In this document: piece after piece, positions 6,568-55,769 of the stretch | Layout of the letters: each line of letters starts with the position of its first letter | Numbering within the stretch: position 1 is the first letter of the stretch | NCBI GenBank assembly: GCA_965116875.1 | Contig: OZ220733.1 | Location: 3,744,001-3,808,000 of the forward strand | Reading direction: 5' to 3' | Origin: Candidatus Latescibacterota bacterium | GTDB lineage: Bacteria > Latescibacterota > UBA2968 > GCA-2709665 | Length of the DNA stretch: 64,000 nucleotides | The notes under the pieces: model-generated | The model's database searches: none | Told to the model about the DNA's origin: nothing | Seen by the model: only the letters and a program-made list of their open reading frames with translations | Translations under genes and position numbers: made by a program

Positions 6568-6626
6568 TTGACATGCGCCTTGAGGTTCGATAAATTTAAA
6601 CGTTCGTTTAAAACATACGTTTGTTT
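6568..6626 (+). promoter_or_regulatory. sigma70 promoter with TetR/PsrA-type operators
   Basis: TTGACA(6568)-17-TAAATT(6591); palindrome TTTAAACG-TT-CGTTTAAA at 6595-6612 and AAACA-N6-TGTTT at 6611-6626. Confidence 0.7.
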
Positions 6627-6654
6627 GAAACCGATGACTCGTTGTGTGATTTTC

Positions 6655-8738: not shown

Positions 8739-8741
8739 ATC

Positions 8742-36460: not shown

Positions 36461-36678
36461 GTCTGACCAATCCAGAATAGGGGACTCCCCTGAGTTGCCA
36501 TCGAAAGCGGGACCCGACAGATGAATTGAGGATATCAAGACTTCAATCTGATGTTGCCGATTGGGATTTTATTCGAAGAATGCTAAATAGGTCGGATTCA
36601 AGATGGGGATCTTTGGAGCCTCTGAATAGGTTCGCCTTTTGCAGTGGTTTATTCAGAATTCGAACCCGGGCACGCCCA

Positions 36679-38112: not shown

Positions 38113-38503
38113 GACTTAACCGTGATACTACAAGACCGGATTGCCTGGTTGGTCGGGTTAGATCGCTACGTTACCGGGAAGAATTGCCATACCGTCGAAC
38201 CACGGAACGTGACCAGTCTCCATGCTTCGCTCATTTCCGTTGATTTCAAAAATCGTGGATCTGCGAGATTTATTCGAGGTTGAACTTCCGGGCAAATTGC
38301 AGCGAACATCCACGAGTCTTGTCAGACCAAGATTAGCCGGTACGAGTATTGCGTAGATAAAATGAGTGTGGCGAACCACGAGAACGTGTGGATCATTCAA
38401 TTTTGCCGGCACCGAGCCAGCTGGATATGCCAGAATTCGCTACAATTCGCTTTGTGTTTCTGCGTGCCAAGAGTGAGAAAAACTGTACAGACGGGGGCGA
38501 ATT

Positions 38504-39880: not shown

Positions 39881-39986
39881 GCACGACTGCGGCGCCGCTC
39901 CCCGCCTCTGAGTATTTACACCTCACTTACTGGCATTACGCGTCTGGCTTTCTCCATTCATCAACTCGCGAAATCTCCAATTTCAG

Positions 39987-40012
39987 CGTTGAGAAATCCC
40001 TTTTTCTCAACG
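39987..40012. promoter_or_regulatory. 10-bp perfect inverted repeat (terminator or activator site)
   Basis: CGTTGAGAAA-TCCCTT-TTTCTCAACG, about 35 nt upstream of the -24 box. Confidence 0.4.
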
Positions 40013-40046
40013 AATTGTTCGAACATAAATTCTGATGCAATTCGTG

Positions 40047-40062
40047 TGGCATGGTACTTGCT
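40047..40062 (+). promoter_or_regulatory. sigma54 -24/-12 promoter
   Basis: TGGCATGGTACTTGCT matches TGGCAC-N5-TTGCW with exact GG-N10-GC spacing, just downstream of the activator gene. Confidence 0.8.
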
Positions 40063-40452
40063 TCACGCATGTATTCGCTTTCTTAGAATGCCTAGGAAAG
40101 ATACCTTTCGAAAACTATAGAAGTTCCCCGGGTGCCTATAACAGGGCCGTAGGGCGCTCGGAAGATCAGCCGGATGTTAAGCGTGAGTCGCGTGTATGTC
40201 GATCTACGTTGGTGTTCTCTGAGTGCAGTGGACGGGATGAAAATTGCATGATTATGAGAACGATCAGATTGCTGCTTGAGACGACACAAAAGGTCCCTGG
40301 CCTTCGCTATGGCTGCGTTTAGCTTGTGGTACTAAGGCTCCGGATCGACCGGGGGTCTCAAAGAGTCTGAGAGTTCCGGGTATATTTGATAGCCTCCTTG
40401 ATGTGATCCGCGCAAAGCTCACAGAAACGAAGGCTCCGAATTCGGAGGATGA

Positions 40453-41877
40453 ATGATGGTTTTTCATCTTATTCGTAAAGAATTCTTGGAACAGATGCTT
40501 AGTTTTCGATTCATCGTTCTCTCCGCGATGGGGGCATTGGCTATTTGGGTATGCCTCTACAGTGGTTATAACCATTATCGAGAAAGGGTAGATGACTACC
40601 GAATGGCTCAAGCAGCGACTAAGGAACGTATCGAAGAAATCGATGATGCTGAGAATTGGTCCGAATTTGTGTATGTTGGCCACTTGGAACACAAACCACC
40701 TGTACCGACTAGTATCTTTGTGCGTGGACTAGAACCTTTTCTAGGACGATCCATTACCAACGCAACAACAATTCGGAGGCTGAACCGAAGTCCAGCAGAA
40801 ATAACCCCGTTGTTTGGTGTTTTCTCGCCTTTGGATCTTGGACTCATTGTACAAATTGTCCTGAGCTTATTTGCATTATTGTTTACATATGATGCTGTGT
40901 GCGGAGAGAAAGAAGCAGGCTCCTTACGTCTGGTTGCTTCATTTCCGATATCCAAACATCACATATTACTATCGAAATACTTCGGCGCATTGTTTCCACT
41001 GCTTATAGCTTTTGGAATGCCTCTTCTGTTGGGCGTTGCTGTTTTGCTTCTAATGCCTGATGTTCGGTTCACAGAACTTGAGTTGAGTCGTATTGGCCTC
41101 ATATTTATCGCTTGTGGGATCTATGTGTCAGTGTTCACTTGTGTCGGTCTTCTATCCTCCTGTTTGACCCAGAAGGCATCAACATCTTTTGTGCTCTTGC
41201 TAGGATTCTGGGTAACTACCGTGGTAGTGATGCCACGTATCAGTTTAATCATAGCTGATAGCTTTCGAACTGCCCCTTCAGTCTACGAATTGGAAGCAGA
41301 AAAAGAAGCCGTATCAAAGTCAAATGGAGAAAGATGGCGTGAGGTTAGAGCTAGGTGGATAAAGGAGAATCCACAGTGGATGGAAACGCCAGAAGGTAGA
41401 GAAGCTCAACGCCTCTTTTGGAGAAAAACGAGGCAGAAGGTATGGTGGGAACCCAATTTGTCACAGCATGCCCGACTGGATGAGAGTTTTCGTAATCGTT
41501 ATGACGCTCGCCTGAACCTTGCTGTTATCATTGCACGCCTTTCTCCGCCTTTTGCATTCAATAATGCAACCGTAGAACTGGCGGGGACTGGTTTGAGCCG
41601 ACAACGTCGATTCTTGACAACATTCCACCGCTACTATCGACAGTGGTATCAGTGGTTTATTGATTCGGTAGACGATGCCCAGTTGAGACGTATCAATTCG
41701 GTAAAATATGGCGAATATAGATGGGATATATCGGATCTTCCCCGGCTTGTATACAAGGAAATTTGGCCTCAAGAAGATGTACAAACGGCTCTAATTGATA
41801 TCGGTGTCATGTTCCTATGGGGACTAATATTCTTTCTAGGCGCTTATGTGGCGCTGTTAAATTATGACTTTAGATAA
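40453..41877 (+). CDS. ABC-2 type permease (NosY/COG1277-like), type A copy 1
   Basis: IRKEF..., TYDAVCGEKEAGSLRL, large extracytoplasmic loops, C-terminal YDFR. Confidence 0.85.
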   Translation: MMVFHLIRKEFLEQMLSFRFIVLSAMGALAIWVCLYSGYNHYRERVDDYRMAQAATKERIEEIDDAENWSEFVYVGHLEHKPPVPTSIFVRGLEPFLGRSITNATTIRRLNRSPAEITPLFGVFSPLDLGLIVQIVLSLFALLFTYDAVCGEKEAGSLRLVASFPISKHHILLSKYFGALFPLLIAFGMPLLLGVAVLLLMPDVRFTELELSRIGLIFIACGIYVSVFTCVGLLSSCLTQKASTSFVLLLGFWVTTVVVMPRISLIIADSFRTAPSVYELEAEKEAVSKSNGERWREVRARWIKENPQWMETPEGREAQRLFWRKTRQKVWWEPNLSQHARLDESFRNRYDARLNLAVIIARLSPPFAFNNATVELAGTGLSRQRRFLTTFHRYYRQWYQWFIDSVDDAQLRRINSVKYGEYRWDISDLPRLVYKEIWPQEDVQTALIDIGVMFLWGLIFFLGAYVALLNYDFR

Positions 41878-42056
41878 GAGACGGCCGCCTACACCCCTAG
41901 ACTCTAAACAAGCGGGTTTTTTGAGATTATTATGTACAAAAATACCGGAAAGACTTAACTTGGTTGGAGTTAGCAGTACCAGACGAGAAATCGCTTCCGG
42001 TGAAAAGAGTATCGATAAAGGAAAGCCGCAGGAACAGAGTCAGCCTTGATTCGTCA

Positions 42057-42345
42057 ATGCGCCGTGAAAAGGTGCGGATCATCAGTGGGTGAGACACTCA
42101 CCCGACAAGTGTCGCTGCAGTCGGAAGCAATCGGAGCGGGACGTAGGCAACGGCATCTCCGAAGCCTCCGGTGTAGAGGGTCGCAAGGTGACTCGGCGAG
42201 TATGCAGGCCGTAACGTGAGTGAACGCTGAGCAGGCCTCGAAAAAGGTAATGCGGGAGCCGACCCGTCTGACGATCCGGGAAAGCCGCCGTCGTTGCGGA
42301 AGAGCGCAACGCGTACACCCAACAATCGCGCCGGGTAATGGCGAC
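42057..42345 (+). mobile_element. Group II intron 5' (domain I) remnant without RT ORF
   Basis: Starts ATGCGCCGTG (cf. GUGYG); hairpin GGGTGAG-ACA-CTCACCC at 42087-42103; GCAGGCCGTAACGTGAGTGAACGCTGAGCAGGCCTCG; antisense pseudo-ORF FEACSAFTHVTAC recalled as typical of intron 5' ends; GC-richer than its flanks. Confidence 0.7.
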
Positions 42346-42411
42346 GTCAAGTATACAAGTTGATGTCGGTTTTCCAGGAGTGCATCTTCTGGCATTGATT
42401 AAGGTTAGCTT

Positions 42412-43812
42412 ATGTTTGGTCGGCTTGTAAAAAAGGAACTATCGCACTATCTCTTCGACTTCCGGTTTATTGTAGTGTTCGCACTTTGTACTCTACTTTC
42501 TGTCTTGAGTGCTTATGTAGGTACCCAGAATTACATTCGGCAGCTTCAACAATACAATGTAGTATCTGAAAAAAGCCGACGGACCATCCAAATTTCGCTT
42601 GAGAAAAACAGGCTCCAAGACTTAGAGTGGACAGGATATCGCTGGAATAAGAGACCCGAATCGCTCAGTCCAGTTGTCTATGGTCTATCTGGGACATTGG
42701 GGCAGGAAGTACGCATCCAATATCGTAGACATCTACAGTTTGAAGCTAGCCTCTTTGCGACCGATCCCATTCATGCGCTTTTGGGTATACTCGATTTGGC
42801 ATTCATTGTGAAAATCGTCCTTAGTCTTTGCATGCTCCTATTAACTTATGATGCAATTTGTGGAGAAAAGGAAACAGGTACTCTAAGGCTCTATGCTTCG
42901 TTTCCGGTGTCTCGATCTAAACTGGCTTTAGCCAAACTTATCGGTTCATCGATTGCTGTTCTAACGCCATTTGTCTTCTCTTTTTTATCAGCCTCTCTTG
43001 TTCTAATCTTGTCCTCGAGACTTAATCTACAAGGACAAGACTGGATTCGAATAGCGATTCTAGCGGTGCTGTCATCGCTCTATTTGGCTGTCTTCGCCGG
43101 ATTTGGGATTTGGGCATCCGCACTGACCCACAAGCGGATAACTTCATTTTTTGGGCTCCTAGGATTGTGGACGGTCTGGATCTTTATTATACCAAATATG
43201 GCAGTAGATATTGCGAATCACTTGATCCCGGTCGAAAGTGTATATGAATTGGAAAGAAAATATAGCGCACTAAGAGAAGAGATTAGAGAGAGTAGGCAAC
43301 GGGAGGTTGATGACTACAGGCGTCTCGCCCCAACAAGAAACCTCGATGCGTTATCGCCGGAAGAACAGCAAAAAGCCCAAATCGGTCTCAGAAGAATTGA
43401 TACCAAGTGGGATATGCTGTTTTACAGAAGGTTGAACAATATTAGATTGGAATGGCAAAATCAAATGAGCAGGCAGCAACAATTGACATTTATGCTCTCG
43501 GCGATTTCCCCCTTCAGCGCTGTCAGTATTGCATCAATGGATGTGGCTCGTACAAGCTTTGTCCAACAGGAAAAACTTGAGGATGCGCTCAATACTTATC
43601 TTATCTATATGGCTCAGTTTATACAAAAAAAGAAATCTCAAGCAGCGAACCAGAGGATCCTAACTGATTTCTCCCTATTCACCTATCAGGATGATGACAG
43701 ATTAGGGGAATGTCTGTACCGGAATACGTTCCACATTGTGAACCTATGGCTTCTATTGATCCTCGGATTTACTGGGGCATATGTCACGATTTTGCGATAT
43801 GACGTAAGATGA
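42412..43812 (+). CDS. ABC-2 type permease, type B copy 1
   Basis: MFGRLVKKEL..DFRF, YGLSGTLGQE, YDAICGEKETGTLRL, C-terminal YDVR. Confidence 0.85.
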   Translation: MFGRLVKKELSHYLFDFRFIVVFALCTLLSVLSAYVGTQNYIRQLQQYNVVSEKSRRTIQISLEKNRLQDLEWTGYRWNKRPESLSPVVYGLSGTLGQEVRIQYRRHLQFEASLFATDPIHALLGILDLAFIVKIVLSLCMLLLTYDAICGEKETGTLRLYASFPVSRSKLALAKLIGSSIAVLTPFVFSFLSASLVLILSSRLNLQGQDWIRIAILAVLSSLYLAVFAGFGIWASALTHKRITSFFGLLGLWTVWIFIIPNMAVDIANHLIPVESVYELERKYSALREEIRESRQREVDDYRRLAPTRNLDALSPEEQQKAQIGLRRIDTKWDMLFYRRLNNIRLEWQNQMSRQQQLTFMLSAISPFSAVSIASMDVARTSFVQQEKLEDALNTYLIYMAQFIQKKKSQAANQRILTDFSLFTYQDDDRLGECLYRNTFHIVNLWLLLILGFTGAYVTILRYDVR

Positions 43813-43963
43813 CCATTCTCTAAAGAGGCTTATCACGTTCGGTTCTATTGAGCTTCACATAAGTCAGTTTATAAGTCGAACCCGATTCCTCGATACGTAC
43901 TTTTGGACGGCTCGGAACATACGGAAGGCCATATCCCCGAGTAACAACCAATTGGAGTGATAT

Positions 43964-45400
43964 ATGCTCGGTTGCGTTATACGGAAAGAGATTCTGGACC
44001 ACATATTGAGCCTTCGGTATCTGATACTTTCAGTGATCGCGGCGCTGGTGGTTTTGCTTAGCCTCTATAGCGGCTACACGTACTATCAATCTAGCCTGGA
44101 GAACTACCGCTTGGCAGAAACGGCGACCGATAATCGCATCCGACAATTGCTGGATTGTGATGATTGGCTGGAGTTAGACGCTATGGGATTTAAGATTCAC
44201 AAGCCGCCAACTCCTATGAGTATCTTTGTTCGTGGATTGGAACCGGCACTCGGGCGAACGGTACTAATTTCCGGTGGCGGAAAACAACTGCCTGCCCGTA
44301 GCCCCGAGTCGGTTGAGCCTTCCCTCGCGGTGTTTCCTCTCCTGGACTTAGGGTTGATTGTCCAGATTGTCCTGAGCCTTTTTATTTTGTTGTTGACCTA
44401 CGATTTGGTGTGTGGAGAAAAGGAAAATGGCACACTGCGATTGATCGCCGCCTTTCCAATTTCGAAAGCGAAACTACTTCTGGGCAAGTTTTTGGGGATC
44501 TATATTCCCACGCTCGTCTCCATTTTTCTACCCTTGCTACTTGGCTTGGCTGCTGTCCTGATGGCCCCCGAAGCAGAGTTCACAGAATTGGAACTAATCC
44601 ATCTGGTGCTCATATTATTGACTATTGGTACCTACCTCTTCACCTTCACAAGCGCCGGAATCTTTGCTTCATGTCTCGCCGGGCGCTCAGCTACGGCATT
44701 TGTCGTCCTTCTCAGCTTCTGGGTCGTCACCGTTGTTGTGCTGCCTCGTTTGAGTCTCATCGTCGCCGACAGCGTCAGTCCAGCACCGTCCTTTTACAAT
44801 CTTATTACAGAAAAGGCAGCTGTTGCAATGGCCGACCTGGAGGCGCGTTACGAACGCCACCGGAACTGGCAGGATGACTATCAGCGGGTCAACGGCGTTG
44901 AGTGGCATAACACTCCCGAGGGTCGGGAGGCATACCAACTATTTTTCGCGCGGACCCGGCGTGAAGCCCGTACGCATACCTTCAAACAGTGGGAACGGCT
45001 GGACGAAGCCTTTCAGAACCGATACAACGCTCGGCTGGACCTGGCAATGTACTTGGCACGACTTTCACCAACATTTGCCTTCAACAACGCAGTAGTCCGG
45101 CTTGCTGGCGTTGGTTGGGAGCCCCAGCACAGGTTCAAGGTGGCAGGCGAGCGGTTTTGGAAGAAATACCGCGCGTGGTTCGCCCGGACGAAGACCCGCG
45201 ACCGACTTAGACTCGCTCATCCAGAAAAATACGGTGAATATCAATGGGACGTCTCGGACATGCCCCGGTTTTTCTTTCAAGAACGATGGCACAGTGAAGA
45301 CGTGCGGTTCGCTCTATTGGACGTTGGCATTTTAGCCATTTGGGGTATCCTGTTCTTCGCCGGTGCATTCTTCACCATCCTGCGTTATGATGTGAGGTAA
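43964..45400 (+). CDS. ABC-2 type permease, type A copy 2
   Basis: Shares HKPP..SIFVRGLEP, TPEGREA, RYNARL, KYGEYQWD with 40453; C-terminal YDVR. Confidence 0.85.
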   Translation: MLGCVIRKEILDHILSLRYLILSVIAALVVLLSLYSGYTYYQSSLENYRLAETATDNRIRQLLDCDDWLELDAMGFKIHKPPTPMSIFVRGLEPALGRTVLISGGGKQLPARSPESVEPSLAVFPLLDLGLIVQIVLSLFILLLTYDLVCGEKENGTLRLIAAFPISKAKLLLGKFLGIYIPTLVSIFLPLLLGLAAVLMAPEAEFTELELIHLVLILLTIGTYLFTFTSAGIFASCLAGRSATAFVVLLSFWVVTVVVLPRLSLIVADSVSPAPSFYNLITEKAAVAMADLEARYERHRNWQDDYQRVNGVEWHNTPEGREAYQLFFARTRREARTHTFKQWERLDEAFQNRYNARLDLAMYLARLSPTFAFNNAVVRLAGVGWEPQHRFKVAGERFWKKYRAWFARTKTRDRLRLAHPEKYGEYQWDVSDMPRFFFQERWHSEDVRFALLDVGILAIWGILFFAGAFFTILRYDVR

Positions 45401-45513
45401 GATGTTGGAATGGTAACTGGACCATTCCGCCCATCTTAAGTATTCCAATAACATGGGATTCCGTAGGAGGTCCAGACGCTGTTGAATGACTGTCAAGTTT
45501 TGGGGAGTCTCCT

Positions 45514-46926
45514 ATGTTCGGTCACCTTGTCCAGAAGGAACTTCGTCACTACATGCTCGATTTCCGTTTCGTTGCAATATTCGTCCTTTGCGCGTTGCTG
45601 TCGAGCCTTAGTGTCTATGTGGGTGGCGAGAAACATCGTCAGCAACTTCGGGAATATATGACAGTCTCTCAAAGTAACCAGGACAGGCTTAGGACCACTC
45701 TGGAGAAAGGATACATTTCCAATTTATGGTGGTTTGGTTACAATTGGAACCGAAGACCCGAAATGCTCAGCCCGCTGGTATATGGCCTCTCCGGAAAACT
45801 AGGGCAGGAAGTCAACCTTCACGCCCAAAGGCCCGTCGAGTTTGAGGGTAGTTCTTTTGAGACTGATCCAGTTCATGCTCTCTTTGGTGTTCTCGACTTG
45901 GACTTTATTGTAAAGATTGTCCTTAGTTTGTGTGTTCTGTTACTAACCTACGATTCAATCTGCGGCGAGAAAGAAGCAGGAACATTGAGACTTTACGCCT
46001 CATTCTCCGTATCTCGGTCCAAGCTAGCTATTGCCAAGCTCGTTGGATCAACTCTGGCGATCGTCGTTCCCCTCTTATTTGCCTTCTTGCTGGCCTCGGC
46101 TGTGTTAGCCCTTTCTCCAAGTGTTAGCTTACAAGTCCAGGATTGGATGAGAATAGTCGCCTTGACGGGCGTTTTCGTCCTCTATTTGATGGTATTCATT
46201 GCGTTCGGGCTTTGGATGTCTGCTTCGACCCATCGTCGAATGACGGCCTTTTTGAGCCTTTTGTGTTTGTGGACCGTCTGGATCTTTGTAGTTCCGGATA
46301 TAGCGGTACGCTTTGCCCGTTACCTGTCTCCGGTAGAAAGCATCTACAACATGGAAAAACGGATTGACACAATTCGCTGGGAAATGCGGGAACGTAAAGT
46401 GGAAGAGATACGGGCTTATCAGGAACGCGTACGTGTCGAAAACAGGGATGCTAATACACTTGCGCAGCAGGCAGAGGCTGAAAGTGTTCACCGTGCAGCG
46501 TTCAAGTCGATTCGAAAAAAGTGGAACCTGCAATACTATCGAAGTATGTCGGACCTGCAAGCAGTCAGGCTCCGCCAGATGCAAAAGCAGCGGGATCTTC
46601 TCGCTGTACTTTCGTCCCTCTCTCCACTAGGCGCGATCAGTTTTACTTCCATGGACATTGCCCGCACTGGACCTATTCAGCAAGCGCGGATCTTAGAGGT
46701 GATGAGCCCACACCTGGTCTATCTCGATTCATTTATTCAAGAAAATTGGATACTACCTTCTGAAATGCGTGATCTGACTGACTTTTCCCAATTCACCTAT
46801 CGGGACACAGACACACTTGGGGATTGCATCTCACGGAATGCATTCCATATTCTGAACTTGGTGCTCCTTGTACTGGTGGGTTTTGCGGGCGCGTATATGG
46901 CTCTGGTTAGATACGATGTTAGATAA
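45514..46926 (+). CDS. ABC-2 type permease, type B copy 2
   Basis: Shares WNRRPE.LSP.VYGLSG.LGQE, TDP.HAL, LTDFS.FTY with 42412; C-terminal YDVR. Confidence 0.85.
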   Translation: MFGHLVQKELRHYMLDFRFVAIFVLCALLSSLSVYVGGEKHRQQLREYMTVSQSNQDRLRTTLEKGYISNLWWFGYNWNRRPEMLSPLVYGLSGKLGQEVNLHAQRPVEFEGSSFETDPVHALFGVLDLDFIVKIVLSLCVLLLTYDSICGEKEAGTLRLYASFSVSRSKLAIAKLVGSTLAIVVPLLFAFLLASAVLALSPSVSLQVQDWMRIVALTGVFVLYLMVFIAFGLWMSASTHRRMTAFLSLLCLWTVWIFVVPDIAVRFARYLSPVESIYNMEKRIDTIRWEMRERKVEEIRAYQERVRVENRDANTLAQQAEAESVHRAAFKSIRKKWNLQYYRSMSDLQAVRLRQMQKQRDLLAVLSSLSPLGAISFTSMDIARTGPIQQARILEVMSPHLVYLDSFIQENWILPSEMRDLTDFSQFTYRDTDTLGDCISRNAFHILNLVLLVLVGFAGAYMALVRYDVR

Positions 46927-47119
46927 GTGGTTCGAACAGAAACATCGGTAGTTGTTCCCCTGTGCATCAATATAGAGTGAGACAACTCCTCCTCCGAGGC
47001 CAATGTCATATATTGGGCAGAGTGGAGAGGACGGGATGAGGCCAAGAACCGATGTATTAGATTATAGCGGAGAGCAGTCTCCGGTTCTGCAGGTCCCGTG
47101 CGGGATCTCAGGGAAGGCG

Positions 47120-48670
47120 ATGGCTTATCCGAAGGTGCCGGAGGTCTCGGAATGCCGTCGGATCACCTTGCCGTTGCTCGTCTCGATGCTTTCGATCCTA
47201 TTCATTCACCTTCCCGGTTACGGTCAGTATTTTACTGAACGTAACGACGAGACGTATCTGATCCTCGCCCTGAAAAAGCAAAAAGCCCGTTTCGACGCAG
47301 CAAGGGTCGAATACGCAGCGGCATTGGAACTTAAACAAAGAAGCCTGATCGCGCTGAACGAATTTGAACGAATCAAGACAAACTACATAAATGAAGAGAT
47401 CAGCTACCAGCAGGCGATGCTACGCGTGATCTTCGATCAGCCCCATATCCTCATCGAAAAAGCGATCAAATATCAGGCCGAAGACGGCAAAAAGCGCGTG
47501 CGGCTCACCCTTAAAAACACGACGGGCGGCGTGGCCGACTATGAAAAACTGGTGCAGACCGATGACAGCGTATTCGATCCCTCGCTTCAGCCTGACAAGA
47601 TCAATAACGTGTTTATTTCTCTGCACGAAAGCGCGGAAGCCGGCGGCGTCGGCCCAATCATCAGTCAGCCTTACGAAGACAAGATTGAAACCCTTGGGTT
47701 TGGGGATTCAGCGCACGTCGATTTCCTCTTGCTCAAAGACGTCGAGGAAGTGATCGTGAGCATGACGTATGCGGGCGCCACGGACCGAAAACATATCTAC
47801 CTGCAAAAGGATACAAGCGCCAACCGCGTGCTTGTCTCCTCGCCGAACTTCTCCCAGGAGTCCTATCTGGGCGAAAGTGCCACCTACTCGCTGCAACTTG
47901 AGCGCTTCTCCAACGAAAACGACGTATTCCGTCTGGCTGTGGTCAACCTGCCCCGTCAAATCACGTACAACTTCCTCGACCCCACCTCAGTACCGATCCA
48001 ACGACTATCTCAAGTCAACTTCACGCAGGGTGTCACCAGCAAACAACTTGCACTTACAGCCTACCTTCCAGAACGGTCGGACGTACAGGTGGGAATCGAC
48101 AAGACCATCACGTTCTATGCGTTGGTCTTGCCCCAGGAAGTCTGGCAAGACGTGCAGCCCTTGGACAATAAGACCTTCAGCGAAAAGGAAGTTGACGGTC
48201 TCGACGCAGGTAAGGTAAAACTGGAACTCATTCCGCGCGGCGTCGGCCGGATCGAAGTTCGGGCACTGAATCTATACCATGAGATCGAAACGGATGGGGA
48301 TGTCACCATGGAAATCACTGTCCTCAATGATGGCAGCAGGCGGCTGGACAACATTCGCATCCGTACCAATATGCCGCCCAAGTGGCAGTCAGATATCCAC
48401 CCAGATGTTATCTCCGAGTTGATGCCGGCCGAAGAACTCACCGTCAAACTGCAATTCCTGCCGCCCGAAAACGTCGAAGTCGGCGACTATGAGATTCAGA
48501 TCCAGACACAGGCGCTGGCGGACAACCGTCCAGTGCAAACGCAGGACAAAACCGTGCGCATTCACGTCAACGCCCTTACCAACCTCTGGTTGAGCGCGTT
48601 CATCGTTCTTTGCGTAATCGGCGTGCTCGTCGGCATTATATGGTATTCAATCAAACTTACCAGACGTTAG
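47120..48670 (+). CDS. NEW3/COG1470-like exported protein with Ig-like domains and C-terminal TM anchor
   Basis: Signal-like segment; N-terminal helical hairpin; NEW3-like TVLNDGSRRLDNIRI..PPKW..P..ISELMPAEE...PPENVEVGDY; TM helix followed by KLTRR; start uncertain. Confidence 0.7.
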   Translation: MAYPKVPEVSECRRITLPLLVSMLSILFIHLPGYGQYFTERNDETYLILALKKQKARFDAARVEYAAALELKQRSLIALNEFERIKTNYINEEISYQQAMLRVIFDQPHILIEKAIKYQAEDGKKRVRLTLKNTTGGVADYEKLVQTDDSVFDPSLQPDKINNVFISLHESAEAGGVGPIISQPYEDKIETLGFGDSAHVDFLLLKDVEEVIVSMTYAGATDRKHIYLQKDTSANRVLVSSPNFSQESYLGESATYSLQLERFSNENDVFRLAVVNLPRQITYNFLDPTSVPIQRLSQVNFTQGVTSKQLALTAYLPERSDVQVGIDKTITFYALVLPQEVWQDVQPLDNKTFSEKEVDGLDAGKVKLELIPRGVGRIEVRALNLYHEIETDGDVTMEITVLNDGSRRLDNIRIRTNMPPKWQSDIHPDVISELMPAEELTVKLQFLPPENVEVGDYEIQIQTQALADNRPVQTQDKTVRIHVNALTNLWLSAFIVLCVIGVLVGIIWYSIKLTRR

Positions 48671-48791
48671 CGCTAGTCCCCTTGCCTTCTGTCTCGCCGA
48701 ACGGGCGGCAATTCTGCTGATTGGCGGGTTTTATTGCCCTTCCCACTTCGGGGGAGCGGACGGGCGTGTCCAAGATAAAATGGAGGTTTCA

Positions 48792-49550
48792 ATGATCGAA
48801 GCCATCGATCTGACGAAGCGGTACGAAGACGGGATACTCGCATTGGACCACCTTAACCTAAAGGTCGCACCGGGGGAGATATTCTGCTTGCTCGGCGCCA
48901 ACGGCGCGGGCAAATCCACCGCGATTAACCTGATGTTGAACTTTATAGAGCCGACCGAAGGCACGGCCAAAATCAACGACATCGATGTCACCCGCGAACC
49001 GCTGGAAGCCAAGAAGTATGTGGCCTACCTGTCGGAAAACGTCAGTTTGTATAGCAACTTTACTGCCCGGCAGAACCTGGAGTTCTTCGCCGGCTTGGCC
49101 GGGAAACAGACTGACCTTGAAGGCTACTATAAGATCCTGCGGAGAGTGGGTTTGCCGGAAAACTCATTCGAGAAACGGATTAAAGAATTCTCAAAGGGGA
49201 TGCGCCAAAAGGTAGGTATAGCCATTGTCATCATTCGGGACGCGCGCGCAGTCATAATGGACGAGCCTACCTCTGGTCTTGATCCGCAAGCCGGCGCCGA
49301 ATTCTTGCATCTACTGGAAGAACTGAGAGGCGAAGGCAGGGCAGTTTTCATGTCGACCCACGACATCTTTCGGGCTCGCACACTTGCGGACAGGGTAGGC
49401 ATCATGAAATCGGGGCGCTTGATAAGCGAACGCACCCGCGGTGAACTGGAATACGAAGACCTGGAGGAACTCTATCTCGATTACATGTACGGCACAAACA
49501 AGGGAAGGGACCAGATTGAAAAGCCGCTCGTCAGAGAGCAGCCGCAATGA
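48792..49550 (+). CDS. ABC transporter ATP-binding protein (COG1131)
   Basis: GANGAGKST, FSKGMRQK, MDEPTSGLDP, STHD. Confidence 0.93.
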   Translation: MIEAIDLTKRYEDGILALDHLNLKVAPGEIFCLLGANGAGKSTAINLMLNFIEPTEGTAKINDIDVTREPLEAKKYVAYLSENVSLYSNFTARQNLEFFAGLAGKQTDLEGYYKILRRVGLPENSFEKRIKEFSKGMRQKVGIAIVIIRDARAVIMDEPTSGLDPQAGAEFLHLLEELRGEGRAVFMSTHDIFRARTLADRVGIMKSGRLISERTRGELEYEDLEELYLDYMYGTNKGRDQIEKPLVREQPQ

Positions 49551-49752
49551 CAACAGGTCTACTGAACTGCACTTGACCAATCGCATCGCAATTCTATCCC
49601 CTCCAACCAAGGATAGATTCAAGACACCCCACTAAACCCGGGTAACTCCAATATGGACCACTTTGTTCCATTGGAAAGAGTCAATTCCCCGAGTCGGTTA
49701 GAGAGTTCCCATCATGTGCCAATATTATTGTCTGATTTCCATCGAATACTTC

Positions 49753-49781
49753 TTGACAATTTCCATTAAAGTAGATAGTTT
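49753..49781 (+). promoter_or_regulatory. sigma70 promoter
   Basis: TTGACA-17-TAGTTT. Confidence 0.55.
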
Positions 49782-49900
49782 AGGCATTCTAATGCGGATA
49801 GATTATTCTCTAAATTGACCGCCTTCTGCTCTTCGTGACCGAGCCGACATGAAGTCAGTCGGTTAAGAACTCGAAACGCAAGTCGTTGAGGAATTCACCC

Positions 49901-50008
49901 ATGTGTTCGATTTCTGTTAATTTGACGATAGCAAACTTGGTACTTTATCGTGTACCCATTGCCGCTAAGCACGGCGAAACTCGAAAGGCGCGATGCGGTT
50001 TGGTATAA
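49901..50008 (+). CDS. Possible 35-aa leader or small peptide MCSISVNLTIANLVLYRVPIAAKHGETRKARCGLV
   Basis: GAGGA RBS 8 nt upstream; lies between promoter and terminator; no recognisable homology. Confidence 0.25.
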   Translation: MCSISVNLTIANLVLYRVPIAAKHGETRKARCGLV

Positions 50009-50031
50009 ATTCAGAAACAGTACGAATTCCC

Positions 50032-50068
50032 GCCGCCATCGATGCCGATTCGATGGCGGCTTTTATTT
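50032..50068 (+). terminator. Intrinsic terminator upstream of the second ABC operon
   Basis: GCCGCCATCGA-TGCCGAT-TCGATGGCGGC-TTTTATTT (11-bp perfect stem). Confidence 0.8.
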
Positions 50069-50217
50069 GTTGTCTGCCACGGGGATTGACGAAACGACAT
50101 TCACCTTGATTCGACACGCTACGTGCTAATCAGAGCGCAACGTAGAGGGAGACGAGCGACGGAACCACGCATCCGTCGCGGGGAAACTCCACAATAACGA
50201 AGTATCTGAGGTCTTGC

Positions 50218-51222
50218 ATGCCAATCATCGTTGTTGACAATCTGACAAAGGAATACCGGAGGATGAAGCGAACGGCTGGCCTGGCGGGTTCCATCCGAAG
50301 CCTGTTTTCGCGCGAGTATGAGACAATACTCGCTGTCAATGATGTCTCTTTCCACGTTGAAGTAGGCGAGGTTGTCGGCTATATCGGCGCAAACGGCGCG
50401 GGTAAGTCTACGACGATTAAAATGCTTGTGGGAATCCTTGTCCCGACGTCCGGCCTTGTCACGGTGCGCGGTCTGGTGCCGCACGAAAACAGAGTTGAGA
50501 ATGCAAAAAAAATGGGGGTTGTTTTTGGGCAGAGAACACAGTTATGGTGGGATATTCCCGTATCCGAGTCATTGAACCTGATGCGTCACATGTTTAAAAT
50601 CCCCGAAAAGCGTTTCAACGAAAACATCGCTCTCTTTGGGAATATCCTCGATCTGAGGGAATTTATCGACACGCCTGTCCGCCAACTCAGTCTCGGACAA
50701 CGAATGAGAGCGGATATCTGTGCGGCATTATTGCACGATCCCGACATTTTATATCTGGATGAGCCTACAATCGGATTGGACGTCGTTGCGAAGGAACGCA
50801 TCAGGGAGTTCATTAAGAGCGTGAATCGTGAAAGAGGCACAACCGTTATCCTGACCACGCATGACATGTCGGATATTGAAAAGCTCTGCTCAAGAGTCAT
50901 GGTGATCGATAAGGGCAGCGTTGTCTACGATGGCCAGTTACAGCAGCTCAAGGAGAAATATGGGACCGAAGAGACGCTGACGATTGAAACCGATGGCGGT
51001 TCAATAGATGATAAGGATCTACGCGAATTGGGCATCCAGGACGTCAACCGCCAGGGTAACAGGTACATATTCCGATATGACAAACGAAAGGTGACTTCCT
51101 CTTCTTTGATTCAATTTGTCCTGGATCACTGTCAAATACGTGATTTTGACGTCCAACAAGCTGAAATCGAGGAAGTGATTCGCCGGTTGTACTTGAGTAT
51201 GGCTGACCGCAGACACGGTTAA
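50218..51222 (+). CDS. ABC transporter ATP-binding protein (COG4586-like)
   Basis: GANGAGKST, VFGQRTQLWWDIP, LSLGQRMR, LDEPTIGLD, TTHDM. Confidence 0.93.
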   Translation: MPIIVVDNLTKEYRRMKRTAGLAGSIRSLFSREYETILAVNDVSFHVEVGEVVGYIGANGAGKSTTIKMLVGILVPTSGLVTVRGLVPHENRVENAKKMGVVFGQRTQLWWDIPVSESLNLMRHMFKIPEKRFNENIALFGNILDLREFIDTPVRQLSLGQRMRADICAALLHDPDILYLDEPTIGLDVVAKERIREFIKSVNRERGTTVILTTHDMSDIEKLCSRVMVIDKGSVVYDGQLQQLKEKYGTEETLTIETDGGSIDDKDLRELGIQDVNRQGNRYIFRYDKRKVTSSSLIQFVLDHCQIRDFDVQQAEIEEVIRRLYLSMADRRHG

Positions 51223-51310
51223 TCTGCCTGATTGAACAGGGAGCGTACACGAGTCCGCCCCGTCTTATGGATGGGTTCGCATTGACTCAGGCGTCAGAAT
51301 CGATTCCAAA

Positions 51311-52114
51311 ATGCGAGTATACTTCGAGTTTATAAAAAATGGAGCGCAGACCGAACTGGCATACAGAATGAGCGTTTTTCTTCGGATCGCCAGTCAACTG
51401 TTCATTCTTGTCGTGAGAGTCGCAATGTGGAACGCATTGCTGAAGGCAGCAGGTGGTGGGGTTGCCACGGACATGGGGTACGTGAATCTTGAAGATATGA
51501 TGACTTACAATGTGATGAGTTCGGTAGCGACAATATTGATATCGACAACCGTCCTCAATGAAGTCGACGAGAAAATCAAGTCAGGCCAGGTCAGTATTGA
51601 CCTGATCAGACCCTTCAACTTTAAAGGATCCCTGTTTTGCTCGACAATCGGCACAAACTCCGTGAAGGCGTTGATAGAAGCGTTACCTCTCTTTATTGTT
51701 TCATTTCTGCTCTATGACATAAGCGTACCATCGTTGAAATATCTGCTCTTATCCCTGTTTTGTCTTGTCAACGCCCTGGTTTTGCTCTTCATGCTCAATT
51801 ATGTGCTCGGATTACTGGGATTCTGGTATCTCTCGGTGTGGCAGTTCAGGATGATTGTCGGGATGCTAATCATGATTCTGGGCGGGCAACAGATACCGCT
51901 CTGGTTTTTTCCTGACTATCTTGTCGATGTCTCTGCATACCTTCCCTTCAGGCTGGTTTACTTTGCTCCTTTATCGATATTTCTTGAAAAGATATCGTTG
52001 ATAGATTCGCTAAGTTTGATTCTTCAGCAATTTCTGTGGATCGGATTTCTTATCCTCATAGAAAAAACGGTCTGGTCCAGAGGAATTAGAAAGCTCGTTA
52101 TTCAGGGAGGCTAG
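51311..52114 (+). CDS. ABC-2 family permease (DUF990/COG4587-like), copy 1
   Basis: AYR, KIKSGQ..DLIRP, IPLWFFP, LPF, C-terminal IQGG. Confidence 0.85.
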   Translation: MRVYFEFIKNGAQTELAYRMSVFLRIASQLFILVVRVAMWNALLKAAGGGVATDMGYVNLEDMMTYNVMSSVATILISTTVLNEVDEKIKSGQVSIDLIRPFNFKGSLFCSTIGTNSVKALIEALPLFIVSFLLYDISVPSLKYLLLSLFCLVNALVLLFMLNYVLGLLGFWYLSVWQFRMIVGMLIMILGGQQIPLWFFPDYLVDVSAYLPFRLVYFAPLSIFLEKISLIDSLSLILQQFLWIGFLILIEKTVWSRGIRKLVIQGG

Positions 52115-52116
52115 AA

Positions 52117-52941
52117 GTGGGCAACCTTCCGTTGTATCGTGGGTTTATTACCGCCCATATGAAGGCCCAGATGGAGTATCGATTCGGGTTTTTCGTAGAA
52201 CATTTCGTCTTAATGTTGTACTATTGCATTTCATATTTGGGCCTCTGGATTGTCCTTGAGAAATTTCAGACGATCGCTGGCTGGACATTCTATGAAGTAT
52301 TGCTTCTTTTCAGCCTCAACCTCTTTGCGTACTCCCTGAGCAGTTTCTTCTTCGGGTTTGGATCCATGCGCAATATGGACAGCCTTGTCCAACAAGGAAC
52401 GTTTGATAGCGTGTTGATTTTTCCCCTGAATCCGTTGGTACACCTCGCATTGAAACACTTCTCAAATAACTATGTCGCTCATTCGGTCCTCTGCATCGTA
52501 ATCTTCGTCGTGTGTTTCGAAGAATTGGATATCAAACTTGGACTCCTGGATGTCCTGCTTTTTTGTGTAGTCTTGATAGGTGGCGCGTTGATTCAGGCTG
52601 CGGCGATGATATCGACAGGAACGATCAGCTTCTGGTTTGTCAGGTCGACGTCCGCGGTAGACGGGGCAATGCAACACACGGCGAAATTTGTGGACTATCC
52701 GATTATAATCTATCAACGGTGGGTTCAGGTCGTTTTGACTTTCGTACTTCCGTTTGCGTTTATCAGTTTCTACCCTGCAGAGACGTTTCTCGGTCGAAAC
52801 AACACCTCTGTTCTACATGGTATTTTGATTTTCGACCCGCTGTTTCAATTCGGAACGCCATTGGTCGGGGCAGTCCTGTTTTTTCTCGCGTACGTGTTCT
52901 GGAAGTGGGGAATCAACCACTATCAGAGTACCGGTACTTGA
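52117..52941 (+). CDS. ABC-2 family permease (DUF990/COG3694-like), copy 1
   Basis: MEYR, GWTFYE, GTFDSVL..P.NP, YP..IY, PFAF..FYP, C-terminal YQSTGT. Confidence 0.85.
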   Translation: MGNLPLYRGFITAHMKAQMEYRFGFFVEHFVLMLYYCISYLGLWIVLEKFQTIAGWTFYEVLLLFSLNLFAYSLSSFFFGFGSMRNMDSLVQQGTFDSVLIFPLNPLVHLALKHFSNNYVAHSVLCIVIFVVCFEELDIKLGLLDVLLFCVVLIGGALIQAAAMISTGTISFWFVRSTSAVDGAMQHTAKFVDYPIIIYQRWVQVVLTFVLPFAFISFYPAETFLGRNNTSVLHGILIFDPLFQFGTPLVGAVLFFLAYVFWKWGINHYQSTGT

Positions 52942-52967
52942 ACTTGTCGATCAGGTAGTCACATAAA

Positions 52968-54026
52968 ATGGCGAAAGTCCCTTCCATACTCAGGTTTGCA
53001 GTCCGTGCAATGGTGGTACTGTTCCTGGTGTCGACCGTTCTGTGGCTCGTGAAGATCGACCAGGTTGCAGTCGGCGAGGGGCTCGTTAGTGCTGAACGCG
53101 AATCCTGGATTGGTTCCCGCGTTGAAGCTCGCGTAGAGTCCGTCCTGATCAAAGAAGGCGAAATGGTAGCTCTCGGCGACACATTGGTTAAACTGGATGG
53201 TTCAATTGCCAGGCTTCAATTGGACGAAGCCAAACATTCGTACAGAACGGCTATTGCCGAACGGGAGGTCAGTCGCGCTGAGATTGAGATCCTGGAAACT
53301 CCCCTGTCCGGGAATATTATCGCCGTACTTCAATCTGAATTGCGATCTTCAAGAGAACAACTGGATCACGCCGAGGGTCAACTTCGCAGAGAACGCGAAC
53401 TGATGATGCGTGGCGGGCTTACGTCTGCAGAGGAGCTGGCGGATGCCGTCTTGGACTCCAAGTTAACGGCCCTTCGGGTTCAGAAAATCGCATCCAAAAT
53501 AGCTGCCGAACAGGAGGAACCGGTCGCTGCACGTATACGGAAGGCTCGTTTCGACCTGCAAGCCAATCAGGCTCTCGTCCGCAAAGCCGAGGTTGAAATC
53601 TTAAAGAAAAGCAGGAACTTAGCCGACCACGCTCTCGTTGCTCCTGATTCTGGACGGATTCATCTGGTATTGGTCAGGAGGGGCGATATGGTCGCTGTGG
53701 GAGACTCTCTTCTATTGCTTGTGCCGAATGGACGTAAGTATGCGAAATGTATGGTGCCGGCAAAATTCGGGCCCTGGTTGGAGGTGGGACAGAGAGTGAT
53801 GATTTCGCCTGTCTGGGAACGGTCGTACGAGCTATCCGGACAGGTCAATTCCGTACGTCGCCATGTCGAAAAAGACCACCTCTCGGTGCTGGTTGACGTG
53901 AGTTTTGACTCGCCCCCTCCGCTGACGCTGGGCGACAAAATCAGAGTTGAAATAACACTTAGACGGAGTGGTTTGTTAAAGCTTCTATTATTCCCTTTCG
54001 AGTGGGAACAGGCCACAACATGGTAA
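52968..54026 (+). CDS. HlyD family periplasmic adaptor, copy 1
   Basis: IDQVAVGEG, IKEGEMV..GDTLVKLD, long coiled coil, LVAPDSG. Confidence 0.8.
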   Translation: MAKVPSILRFAVRAMVVLFLVSTVLWLVKIDQVAVGEGLVSAERESWIGSRVEARVESVLIKEGEMVALGDTLVKLDGSIARLQLDEAKHSYRTAIAEREVSRAEIEILETPLSGNIIAVLQSELRSSREQLDHAEGQLRRERELMMRGGLTSAEELADAVLDSKLTALRVQKIASKIAAEQEEPVAARIRKARFDLQANQALVRKAEVEILKKSRNLADHALVAPDSGRIHLVLVRRGDMVAVGDSLLLLVPNGRKYAKCMVPAKFGPWLEVGQRVMISPVWERSYELSGQVNSVRRHVEKDHLSVLVDVSFDSPPPLTLGDKIRVEITLRRSGLLKLLLFPFEWEQATTW

Positions 54027-54124
54027 GAATGTGAGAACTCGTAACGCGTGCGCGTGTCGAGTTTTGCAACGCAAGAGATGTGCCTGGCCGGGTACACCTG
54101 AACCGTCTCACGGGCGGCCATGAA

Positions 54125-54925
54125 ATGAAAGTCTATATTGAATTCCTGAAGAACGCCTTCCAGTCCAACCTGGCCTACAAGATGAACGTCTTCTTGAGCC
54201 TGGTCAGTTCTATCGTCGTTCTTCTGGTACAGATCTATTTCTGGCGCGCGCTGTTTCAGGATATCGGTCAGACACAGACGAACATGGGGGTCATCAGCTT
54301 TCGGGACATGGTCTCGTACACGCTTGTCAGCACCGGAATTTCCATTGCGATCAGCACGACGACTGTCTTCAAGGTCAACGACAAGATCAGATCGGGAGAA
54401 ATCGCCATGGACCTCATCAAGCCGGTGAGTCTGAAAGGTATGTTGTTTTTCGATGCGCTTGGAAACAACGGCTTCAGGGTGGTTTTCCAGTTGACGCCGT
54501 TTCTGATTGTTGGCATCCTGATGTTCGGCATTCGCATACCCTCCGTGCCGTATCTTGTCCTGTTCGTGATATCGGCGATCAACGGCATGATGATTTATTT
54601 TTCGATCAGCTATTTGATCGGACTGATCGGATTCTGGTTCCTTGCCGTGACGTCACTGAGTATGCTGTTCAACGTTCTGATCAACGTCTTCTCGGGTGAG
54701 ATGGTACCGCTCTGGTTCTTCCCCGATTTTCTTTACGAACTTTCCGCTTTCCTCCCGTTCCGACTCATCTATTTCGCACCGCTGGCGATATTTCTGGAGA
54801 AAACAGTCCTGGCCGACGCGATCGGCTTTATCCTGCAGCAATTCCTCTGGATCGGAATTCTGGCGGGAATCGAAAAAATATTGTGGATGAGAGCAGTGAG
54901 AAAGCTGGTCATACAGGGCGGTTGA
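54125..54925 (+). CDS. ABC-2 family permease (DUF990/COG4587-like), copy 2
   Basis: Paralog of 51311 (YIEF.KN, PLWFFP, RKLVIQGG). Confidence 0.85.
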   Translation: MKVYIEFLKNAFQSNLAYKMNVFLSLVSSIVVLLVQIYFWRALFQDIGQTQTNMGVISFRDMVSYTLVSTGISIAISTTTVFKVNDKIRSGEIAMDLIKPVSLKGMLFFDALGNNGFRVVFQLTPFLIVGILMFGIRIPSVPYLVLFVISAINGMMIYFSISYLIGLIGFWFLAVTSLSMLFNVLINVFSGEMVPLWFFPDFLYELSAFLPFRLIYFAPLAIFLEKTVLADAIGFILQQFLWIGILAGIEKILWMRAVRKLVIQGG

Positions 54926-54926
54926 G

Positions 54927-55748
54927 ATGGGCAACTTAAGATTGTACGGACGATTCCTGGTCGTCTATCTGAAGACCCTGATCGAATACAGATTTAACTT
55001 TTTTACTTCACAGATCATCACGATCGTTGTGTATCTGATCAGCTTCCTGGGCGTTTGGATTGTTCTGAATAAGTTCAAAATCATACACGGATGGAATTTC
55101 TATGAGATCATGCTGCTGTACAATCTCAATCTCTTTTCGTACGGCGCAAGCAGTCTGTTTTTCCGTGGACCCATGCGCCGTCTGGAGTATATGGTTCAGG
55201 ACGGTTCATTCGACAGTATTCTGATCTATCCGATGAACCCTTTCGCGAACTTGATTTGTCGCGATTTCAGTCACAGTTTCATGGCCCATATGGTCCTGGG
55301 CGTCGTATTCTTTTATATCTGTTTTGAAAACCTGAGCATTGTGTGGACGTGGATGAACGTGGTCTGGTTCGGGCTGGTGCTGATTGGCGCCACGTTGATC
55401 CAGGCGGCGATCATGGTACTGACGGGAACGATGAGCTTCTGGTTTGTGAGGTCGGCGGCAGTTGTCGATACGGCGATTTACGGTTTGAGGAGGTTTGTCA
55501 ACTATCCTCTCGGCATGTACGACAAATGGGTGCAGGTACTCTTGACTTTCGTCATCCCCTACGGCTTTGTCGCCTATTTCCCTGCGGAGGATTTCCTGAA
55601 CAAATCGGACGCTCCATTGTTCCACGGGATCACTCTGTTCGATCCGTTATTCCAGTACGGGACGCCTCTGGTCGGCATCGTGAGCTTTTTCCTGGCATAC
55701 AGACTCTGGTGTGTCGGCATCAACAGATACGAGAGTACAGGATCGTAG
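54927..55748 (+). CDS. ABC-2 family permease (DUF990/COG3694-like), copy 2
   Basis: Paralog of 52117 (MGNL.LY, FDPLFQ.GTPLVG, YESTGS). Confidence 0.85.
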   Translation: MGNLRLYGRFLVVYLKTLIEYRFNFFTSQIITIVVYLISFLGVWIVLNKFKIIHGWNFYEIMLLYNLNLFSYGASSLFFRGPMRRLEYMVQDGSFDSILIYPMNPFANLICRDFSHSFMAHMVLGVVFFYICFENLSIVWTWMNVVWFGLVLIGATLIQAAIMVLTGTMSFWFVRSAAVVDTAIYGLRRFVNYPLGMYDKWVQVLLTFVIPYGFVAYFPAEDFLNKSDAPLFHGITLFDPLFQYGTPLVGIVSFFLAYRLWCVGINRYESTGS

Positions 55749-55769
55749 TCTCCTGCGGGTTTTGATACC

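Follow-up and report, generated by a model that had tools for sequence, protein, structure and literature searches.

Tripartite efflux and secretion machines are, to our knowledge, thought to rely on one family of adaptors, the membrane-fusion proteins (MFPs), in which a coiled-coil hairpin is inserted in a lipoyl domain. The nearest precedent for a non-MFP adaptor directed towards an outer-membrane partner is KpsE (PCP-3), which works with the ABC-2 capsule exporter KpsMT; its partner is an OPX protein and not a TolC-like outer-membrane factor (OMF), and it is not known to have an immunoglobulin (Ig)-like stalk. In NosDFY, too, an ABC-2 permease has a periplasmic protein of its own, NosD, a copper-handling beta-helix protein that has no hairpin and is not known to be linked to an OMF. 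In the YbhG-YbhFSR type, presumably the system named YbhGFSR, a pair of ABC-2 permeases and an ATPase are likewise accompanied by a hairpin-bearing periplasmic protein, in this case a canonical HlyD-family MFP. Here we describe a gene of a Candidatus Latescibacterota bacterium, located in a stretch of 64,000 nucleotides (GenBank assembly GCA_965116875.1, contig OZ220733.1, positions 3,744,001 to 3,808,000), the whole of which is called the window below. Its product, P0001, is classed by Pfam as a NEW3-domain protein, and it stands in the window's first ABC-2 module where the YbhG type has its MFP. We propose, with moderate confidence, that the NEW3 family to which P0001 belongs acts as an adaptor, linking a NosY-like ABC-2 exporter to a TolC-like channel by means of an MFP-type hairpin. 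That the NEW3 protein serves the transporter at least as a dedicated subunit in the periplasm seems much surer.

The gene and the parts of its product are as follows.

47120..48670, forward strand: gene for the NEW3/hairpin protein P0001 (516 aa), from the list of open reading frames (ORFs), the translation and a GGAAGG resembling a Shine-Dalgarno sequence

47120..47224, forward strand: N-terminal signal segment, residues 1-35, from the hydrophobic segment 15-33 and the N-termini of the family

47246..47437, forward strand: antiparallel alpha-hairpin, residues 43-106, from AlphaFold2 (AF2) models, matches in the VIA structural search and profile matches to MFPs

47318..47353, forward strand: hairpin tip, residues 67, 71 and 78, which are A, L and A, from the alignment of the hairpin set A3 (defined below) with the RLS positions of MacA

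47447..47809, forward strand: beta-sandwich domain D1, residues 110-230, from AF2 strands and Ig-like matches in VIA

47828..48199, forward strand: beta-sandwich domain D2 with two short helices, residues 237-360, from AF2 and the tandem Ig-like arrays found by Foldseek

48209..48571, forward strand: beta-sandwich domain D3, the NEW3/NPCBM_assoc domain, residues 364-484, from Pfam PF10633 and AF2 (pLDDT ~95)

48584..48652, forward strand: C-terminal transmembrane (TM) anchor, residues 489-511, followed by KLTRR, from hydropathy, the AF2 helix and conservation in the family

The ATG at 47120 is internal to an open frame that runs from 47003 to 48670 on the forward strand, with the GGAAGG placed 5 nt before it; this start was chosen because the alignments of homologues begin at about the same point. 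The AF2 model of P0001, made from a 50-row alignment, has a mean pLDDT of 85.8 and a pTM of 0.59. It begins with a helix over residues 10-30, corresponding to the signal segment, and a low-confidence linker (34-42), after which the hairpin takes up 64 residues (helix 43-73, loop 74-78 with the sequence SLIAL, helix 79-106; pLDDT ~87-94). The hairpin was reproduced in a separate model limited to residues 36-240. Three blocks of strands (110-230, 237-338 and 364-484) make up the three beta-sandwich domains, and a last helix, 489-515, is the TM anchor, conserved across the family. In the VIA search D1 matched Ig-like domains of glycosidases and of SgrA (Z ~8), while Foldseek with the whole model returned only tandem Ig arrays (HYDIN, integrin and Cep192). 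The match of D3 to PF10633 (NPCBM_assoc/NEW3; residues 391-462, E 3.6e-11, 43.5 bits against a gathering cut-off of 24.4) was the only domain that Pfam gave for P0001, and NCBIfam gave none. A hydropathy scan found two hydrophobic segments only, 15-33 and 489-507 (score 2.87). This order of parts, which the analysis shows, is the one that the earlier note had described (signal segment, hairpin, about three Ig-like domains and a C-terminal TM segment), and AF2, hydropathy and Pfam agree with it.

The N-terminal segment is probably a Sec signal peptide. Judged by eye, the N-termini of 76 family ORFs have a basic start, a short h-region of ~10-15 residues and, commonly, small residues before a conserved Q. 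Also by eye, the N-terminus of P0001 has no lipobox. Within the mature protein, the C-terminal helix (489-511) is the only one that is both long and hydrophobic. If the signal peptide is cleaved, P0001 would be a type I membrane protein with the hairpin, whose onset lies ~8 residues past the likely cleavage site, as its free distal end. Taking general domain sizes of ~40 Å for each of the three Ig-like domains and ~45 Å for the hairpin, P0001 is estimated to span ~165 Å, of the order of the distance that an adaptor has to cover up to the tip of an OMF.

The hairpin was compared with known proteins by means of an alignment, A3, of 65 rows and 73 positions, comprising the window copy and 64 of the 72 distinct hairpin sequences from related loci; eight near-duplicate or short rows had been removed by hand. 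Searched against 177,635 distinct PDB sequences, the hidden Markov model (HMM) of A3 gave 31 matches at E <= 10, among them 17 MFPs and one OMF. The 13 top matches are all MFPs (E 8.4e-5 to 0.067) and include 4l8j (8.4e-5), C. jejuni AcrA (1e-3), MexJ, four MacA entries, ZneB, AcrA entries and an RND MFP fusion; the next is the OMF CmeC, and further down come three EmrA entries and a MexC-like protein, all four of them adaptors. As a control, the same HMM was run against the window's own genome, cut in all six frames into stop-to-stop ORFs (23,406 of >= 100 aa). At E <= 10 it found P0001 (2.9e-25) and eight other ORFs (4.8e-7 to 0.22), every one of which carries HlyD_D23 or HlyD_3 in Pfam; with a genome total of 16 HlyD_3 genes, the hypergeometric P for eight HlyD-family matches out of eight is ~6e-27. 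A VIA structural search of the hairpin over 48,161 chains placed MFPs at five of the six best positions, with a root-mean-square deviation of 1.6-2.2 Å over 70-72 residues (Z 10.7 for 4l8j, 10.2 for MexA, 9.9 for EmrA, 9.3 for a MacA-MexA chimera and 9.1 for AcrA).

The term 'MFP-type', which the earlier note had applied to the hairpin on the strength of residues 51-98 of P0001, is thus strongly borne out at the level of family profiles, with 13 of the 13 best PDB matches and 8 of the 8 genome matches being MFPs; this profile-level likeness is a direct observation. Single sequences gave less. A phmmer search of the PDB with P0001 alone returned no MFP matches, and Pfam scans at E <= 10 of the hairpin alone and of eight homologues returned no MFP models, the sole related result being a weak OEP match in P0022 (E 0.08). 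Among the 120 listed homologues, 8 carry precomputed matches to PF25893, which we take to be a model of the MFP hairpin. The more specific claim that the tip resembles those of the window's two HlyD proteins did not hold up: the A3 HMM matched neither of these island HlyDs, nor the window's RND MFP, at E <= 10, and hhalign aligned the quoted tip with the first HlyD at a probability of 2.7% (E 0.017) and A3 with the RND MFP at 1.1%, neither of which is significant.

Passages of one published account give RxxxLxxxxxxS as the TolC-binding motif of MacA, AcrA and MexA, with RLT in HlyD, and state that mutation of the motif Arg impairs MFPs (PMC3391258). In the HMM alignment, positions 28, 32 and 39 of A3 pair with R131, L135 and S142 of MacA. 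Leu is found at position 32 in 63 of the 65 rows, Ser or Thr at position 39 in 62 and Arg at position 28 in 36; the full RLS or RLT is present in 32 rows and NLS in 17. In the clade linked to a PDZ protein (see below) the full RLS/RLT tip is kept in 14 of 17 rows. The spacing from L to S is constant in 216 of 217 hairpin-bearing proteins, a set that was not de-replicated, and the two hairpin arms measure 23 and 24 residues in 205 and 201 of them, respectively. The sole recurrent variants in arm length are of +7 residues, in 4 and 6 of these proteins, which fits the variation expected of a coiled-coil hairpin.

The family thus shares with MFPs (MacA, AcrA, MexA, EmrA, HlyD and 4l8j of Bacteroides eggerthii) a coiled-coil hairpin of similar length and the spacing of L and S/T at its tip. 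Both kinds of protein are fixed to the inner membrane and reach into the periplasm with a long body made of several domains, and in OMF-linked loci the NEW3 gene is placed between the OMF gene and the ABC genes. The architecture is different. MFPs are defined, in passages of PMC4446572, by a hairpin spliced into the lipoyl domain; no strand precedes the hairpin of P0001, which therefore cannot be a lipoyl-domain insert. Whereas Biotin_lipoyl was matched in the window's HlyDs, lipoyl, beta-barrel and HlyD domains were undetected by Pfam in P0001 (no HlyD_3 or HlyD_D23 match at E <= 0.01), and its beta domains match Ig-like sandwiches structurally. Three such sandwiches form the stalk, and the anchor is C-terminal with the hairpin at the free N-terminus, the opposite end from MFPs. 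Many NEW3 members differ from MFPs in missing the Arg of the RLS motif, and the window copy is missing both Arg and Ser. Of the features by which MFPs are recognised, the family has the hairpin, a transporter gene nearby and, in part of the loci, an OMF gene, the last being absent at the window; P0001 has no RLS/RLT motif, no lipoyl-inserted hairpin and no N-terminal membrane or lipid anchor. P0001 is not a member of the MFP family, although the role proposed for it is MFP-like.

The other genes of the module to which P0001 belongs are these.

40453-41877, forward strand: ABC-2 permease gene (ABC2_membrane_2), product ~470 aa

42412-43812, forward strand: second ABC-2 permease gene of the same kind and size

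43964-45400, forward strand: third such permease gene

45514-46926, forward strand: fourth such permease gene

48780..49550, forward strand: ABC ATPase gene (ABC_tran, E 5e-28, in Pfam; DrrA subfamily in NCBIfam)

DUF3526 was found by Pfam in two of the four permeases. Three of them have six hydrophobic segments and the first has seven, and their closest solved relative is NosY (E 2.2e-7). The operon is conserved beyond the window, and this too is observed directly. In one-genome-per-species data 419 relatives of the NEW3 protein were found, and the loci of the best 80 of these were characterised by tblastn and ORF clustering; locus counts given here refer to these 80. ABC-2 permeases of ~470 aa occur in 73 loci (187 genes) and an ATPase in at least 52, which is a lower bound because antisense ORFs mask some ATPase genes. 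A histidine kinase and a sigma-54 regulator adjoin the module in 19 loci, a second kinase is present in 10 and an OmpR-type regulator in 8. In one clade a small secreted protein with PDZ domains is encoded directly upstream of the NEW3 gene, together with the OmpR-type regulator and second kinase (e.g. L079:9140-9997 and L065:9000-9713). Two relatives from two sources, P0211 and P0271, consist of an ABC-2 permease fused to the NEW3 protein, which argues for physical association of the NEW3 protein with the permease. The fusion retains a junction like a signal peptide and so does not settle cleavage.

A TolC-like OEP protein (PF02321, E 6e-38) was found in 18 of the loci by ORF clustering, and tblastn added three more OEP genes, bringing the count to 21; of these, the gene of L074 is masked by an antisense ORF, and in L018 and L029 only the C-terminal end is present, at the contig edge. 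The OEP gene lies directly upstream of the NEW3 gene on the same strand, except in L055, where a small ORF intervenes, and, with one exception, the gap between the two lies within -55 to +105 nt. In a FastTree tree of 77 rows, from which four ORFs of < 430 aa were excluded, all OEP-linked rows are found to the same side of one branch. A clade of 20 rows has an OEP gene in 18 of the 18 members with observable upstream DNA. The window's own clade (n = 11) has a permease gene upstream, and its sister, a clade with a long hairpin, is OEP-linked in 3 of 4. In the window's phylum, three loci with tandem NEW3 copies all have the order OEP, NEW3, NEW3:

L111:9400-13726: OEP gene followed by two NEW3 genes

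L112:8487-12795: OEP gene followed by two NEW3 genes

L113:8464-12772: OEP gene followed by two NEW3 genes

An ATPase gene stands alongside in all three, permease genes in two, and in two both copies have the hairpin. Such tandem paralogues recall pumps that have two different adaptors.

No canonical MFP gene was found among the ORFs scanned around 18 of these OMF genes. Among the 101 unassigned ORFs (>= 110 aa) of the 18 OEP loci other than L018, L029 and L074, none gave an MFP/HlyD-type match at E <= 1e-5, and 14 further neighbour ORFs in other loci gave no MFP matches at E <= 1e-3. HlyD genes occur, among the 80 loci, only in L006 and L007, which mirror the island of the window, and at the edge of L033. 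Both the adjacency of an OMF gene in several clades and the lack of an MFP gene among the ORFs scanned are direct observations. A sister genome carries a relative of the NEW3-linked OMFs (35% identity to the OMF of L021), the gene of which shares an operon with three HlyD genes and those for a MacB-type permease and an ATPase, which indicates that the NEW3-linked OMFs are of efflux type. The OMF gene of L040 (genome G003; C1:4305879-4307237) has one in-frame TAG inside the match and may be a broken gene or reflect a sequencing error.

A word-indexed search gave 570 homologues of P0001 at E <= 1e-3; the 120 listed, mostly ~490-510 aa long, all have the hairpin. Residues 237-516, searched against 1.84 billion representatives, gave 509 proteins at E <= 1e-3. 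By HMM the hairpin is present in 97 of the best 150 of these, the remainder being mostly fragments of < 400 aa, and five of the best 150 have divergent hairpin-like segments. A tblastn search of plasmids with the same residues gave no match. Three D1 repeats come after the hairpin in P0142, P0147 and P0154 and would make the stalk longer. A scan of the window's phylum placed the family in 77 genomes out of 168, many of them with two tandem NEW3 copies; within the window's genus, 3 of the 14 other genomes have it. In the window's genome the P0001 gene is single-copy. The phyla named in record titles are all diderm (Latescibacterota, Gemmatimonadota, KSB1, Ignavibacteriota, Bacteroidota, Chlorobiota, Zixibacteria, Glassbacteria, Aminicenantes, Rhodothermota and Deferribacterota), many records saying only 'bacterium'. 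Two metagenome-assembled genomes with unexpected labels, 'archaeon' (L019) and 'Eubacteriales' (L069), have 6 and 5 matches to Omp85/BamA, a family that in controls matched diderms only. COG1470/NEW3 membrane proteins of ~390-420 aa, in clusters from Myxococcota, Bacillota and Pseudomonadota, share NPCBM_assoc (Atlas score 0.76-0.77) and are ~100 aa shorter than P0001; their automatic names suggest an association with membranes or ABC transporters and are to be taken as leads only.

In the arrangement that we propose, P0001 would be a periplasm-spanning accessory subunit of an ABC-2 exporter, with the four permeases and the ATPase encoded alongside. It would be made with a Sec signal peptide that is then cleaved, be retained in the inner membrane by its C-terminal helix, and rise through the three beta-sandwich domains to a free, coiled-coil hairpin of MFP type. 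The family hairpin would most likely meet the periplasmic tip of a TolC-like OMF, so that the NEW3 protein would replace the MFP in a tripartite exporter of ABC-2 transporter, adaptor and OMF. Signal-peptide cleavage, the extended stalk and OMF docking, like stoichiometry and substrate, are matters that we infer. The adjoining two-component regulators suggest an inducible efflux or detoxification role.

A number of observations weigh against docking to an OMF, at the window in particular. No OMF gene is present in the window's NEW3 operon, the best match in the window's genome to a profile of the NEW3-linked OMFs scores only 35 bits, and the tip of the window copy, A67-L71-A78, is the sole A-L-A among the 65 rows of A3 and does not have the RLS motif. 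With this degenerate tip and no OMF of its own, the window copy would have to borrow one of the 8 OMFs encoded in the genome, or docking may have been lost. Across the family, 59 of the 80 loci show no adjoining OMF gene, and the slot upstream of the NEW3 gene is held by a small periplasmic PDZ protein in 19 loci and by a permease in 19 of the 66 in which it is observable. Even in the OMF-linked clade the tip is NLS in 13 of 16 rows, the motif Arg being missing. Two full-length relatives, P0184 and P0197, have no hairpin, their signal peptide leading straight into D1. In the VIA list of the hairpin, designed hairpins reach Z 8-9, as do ROP and F-BAR proteins, so that the hairpin fold alone is generic and insufficient for a likeness to MFPs. 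Foldseek of the N-terminal model, a check put forward in the earlier note, returned Kir channels and the like, with the MFP 4l8j only at rank 21; like the Foldseek result for the whole model, it is uninformative about the hairpin. Lastly, the permeases have a gap of ~180 aa before their last hydrophobic segment; this stretch, rich in charged residues, is probably periplasmic and could be the element that reaches outward.

These observations lend some plausibility to an alternative that we nonetheless consider less likely, in which the NEW3 protein is an accessory ABC-2 subunit that never touches the outer membrane. The hairpin would then self-associate or bind the periplasmic domain of the permeases, as in auxiliaries of the NosD or GldG type, and a neighbouring OMF would be reached by some other element such as the permease insert. 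Conservation of the operon does tie the NEW3 protein to the permeases and not to the OMF, most loci have no OMF gene, and the window copy combines its altered tip with the absence of an OMF neighbour. The permease insert, the permease-NEW3 fusion and the periplasmic partner of NosY, NosD, whose role is as outlined above, all fit with it. It leaves unexplained, however, why the top profile matches in both the genome and the PDB are MFPs specifically, why the TolC-contact spacing L-x6-S is nearly invariant, and why no MFP appears among the scanned ORFs of the OMF-linked operons. The adaptor bridging an ABC-2 complex and an outer-membrane channel that the earlier note had envisaged therefore stands in part: the architecture, the operon and the presence of an upstream OMF gene in 21 of the 80 loci and in all three tandem loci speak for it, but not the window copy itself, with its A-L-A tip and no OMF. 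Much the same applies to the expected co-occurrence of the hairpin with diderm envelopes, which is seen in the named phyla and in the two oddly labelled genomes with Omp85, but is qualified by the existence of the hairpin-less, full-length P0184 and P0197.

It is improbable that the N-terminal segment is instead an uncleaved anchor, with both ends of the protein held in the membrane as in PCP proteins (KpsE, Wzz) or GldG and the hairpin membrane-proximal within a cage that surrounds the transporter. KpsE of KpsMT is among the structural matches of the hairpin (8tsh_E, Z 8.7), P0001 has a C-terminal TM segment, and in P0211 the corresponding segment comes after the last permease TM and a short loop, as would befit a membrane-spanning role. 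But KpsE matches by the generic hairpin fold only: the A3 profile gives no KpsE match, and it is MFPs, not PCPs, that the hairpin profile finds. The N-terminal segment looks cleavable and N-termini across the family resemble Sec signal peptides, and a scan of 115 neighbour ORFs gave no member of the OPX family. Very improbable indeed is a glycan-binding or structural protein of the cell surface or periplasm that merely lies beside a transporter, since, although NPCBM_assoc is the sole Pfam match, NEW3 domains accompany glycosidases and the Ig-like domains match glycosidase accessory domains structurally, Pfam finds no glycosidase domain in P0001, the arrangement of its gene with those of the permeases and the ATPase is conserved in many phyla, the gaps to the OMF gene are short or negative, and a fusion to the permease exists.

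Around the module, the window contains the following features.

36526-38112, forward strand: histidine kinase gene (Pfam), probable regulator

38504-39880, forward strand: sigma-54-dependent response regulator gene (Pfam), probable regulator

40047..40061, forward strand: sigma-54-like -24/-12 site, TGGCATGGTACTTGC, one mismatch away from the consensus and placed after the regulator gene, ahead of the first permease gene

50218-56825: second ABC-2 module, with a DrrA-like ATPase gene and then, twice, two ABC2_membrane_6 permease genes and a gene for an HlyD-family MFP

6568-13195, forward strand: classical operon of TetR, OMF, MFP and AcrB-type RND genes, its OMF being one of the 8 of the genome

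2749-5814, reverse strand: BlaR1-type M56 peptidase with DUF4837, beside a TonB-C protein

35297-36460, forward strand: ankyrin-repeat protein at the edge of the island

The position of TGGCATGGTACTTGC between the regulator and the first permease is suggestive only; the window has 8 matches to the sigma-54 pattern where 3.9 are expected, and is not enriched. Both ABC-2 modules and the regulators lie inside an island, 36000-56000, in which the G+C content is 0.45-0.54 compared with ~0.60-0.64 for the genome. The island is common to L006 and L007 at ~90-96% protein identity and is patchy within the genus; together, the low G+C content and patchy distribution make it look like a horizontal acquisition. 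In L007 there are extra ORFs between the second and third permease genes (L007:4549-6075 and neighbours) relative to L006 and the window, and the inserted cluster recurs after the ATPase gene; these ORFs are possibly a mobile element. The second module, in which no OMF gene was found, is one that we take to be of the YbhG-YbhFSR type, and canonical and non-canonical hairpin proteins thus adjoin in one island.

No papers on the NEW3/hairpin family were found in the literature searched, which was limited to one paper collection, and a 2026 adaptor review (PMC13328181), searched by term, contains no mention of Ig-like, immunoglobulin, ABC-2, C-terminal transmembrane or Bacteroid. Whether the family amounts to an undescribed class of adaptor, with a TolC-docking hairpin on an Ig-like stalk anchored by a C-terminal helix that replaces the MFP in ABC-2/OMF exporters, seems to us evenly poised; this wider reading includes a range over Latescibacterota, Gemmatimonadota, Bacteroidota, Ignavibacteriota and allied phyla, a stalk that is tunable through one to three copies of D1, and, in some lineages, two paralogous adaptors side by side. 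If true, the hairpin would be a portable OMF-docking module that occurs on a second, unrelated scaffold, and the transporters coupled to TolC-like channels would be more numerous, extending here to NosY-like ABC-2 permeases with large periplasmic inserts. The family would serve as a natural experiment on how much of an MFP it takes to engage an OMF, and a role would be assigned to a widespread 'hypothetical NEW3 protein'.

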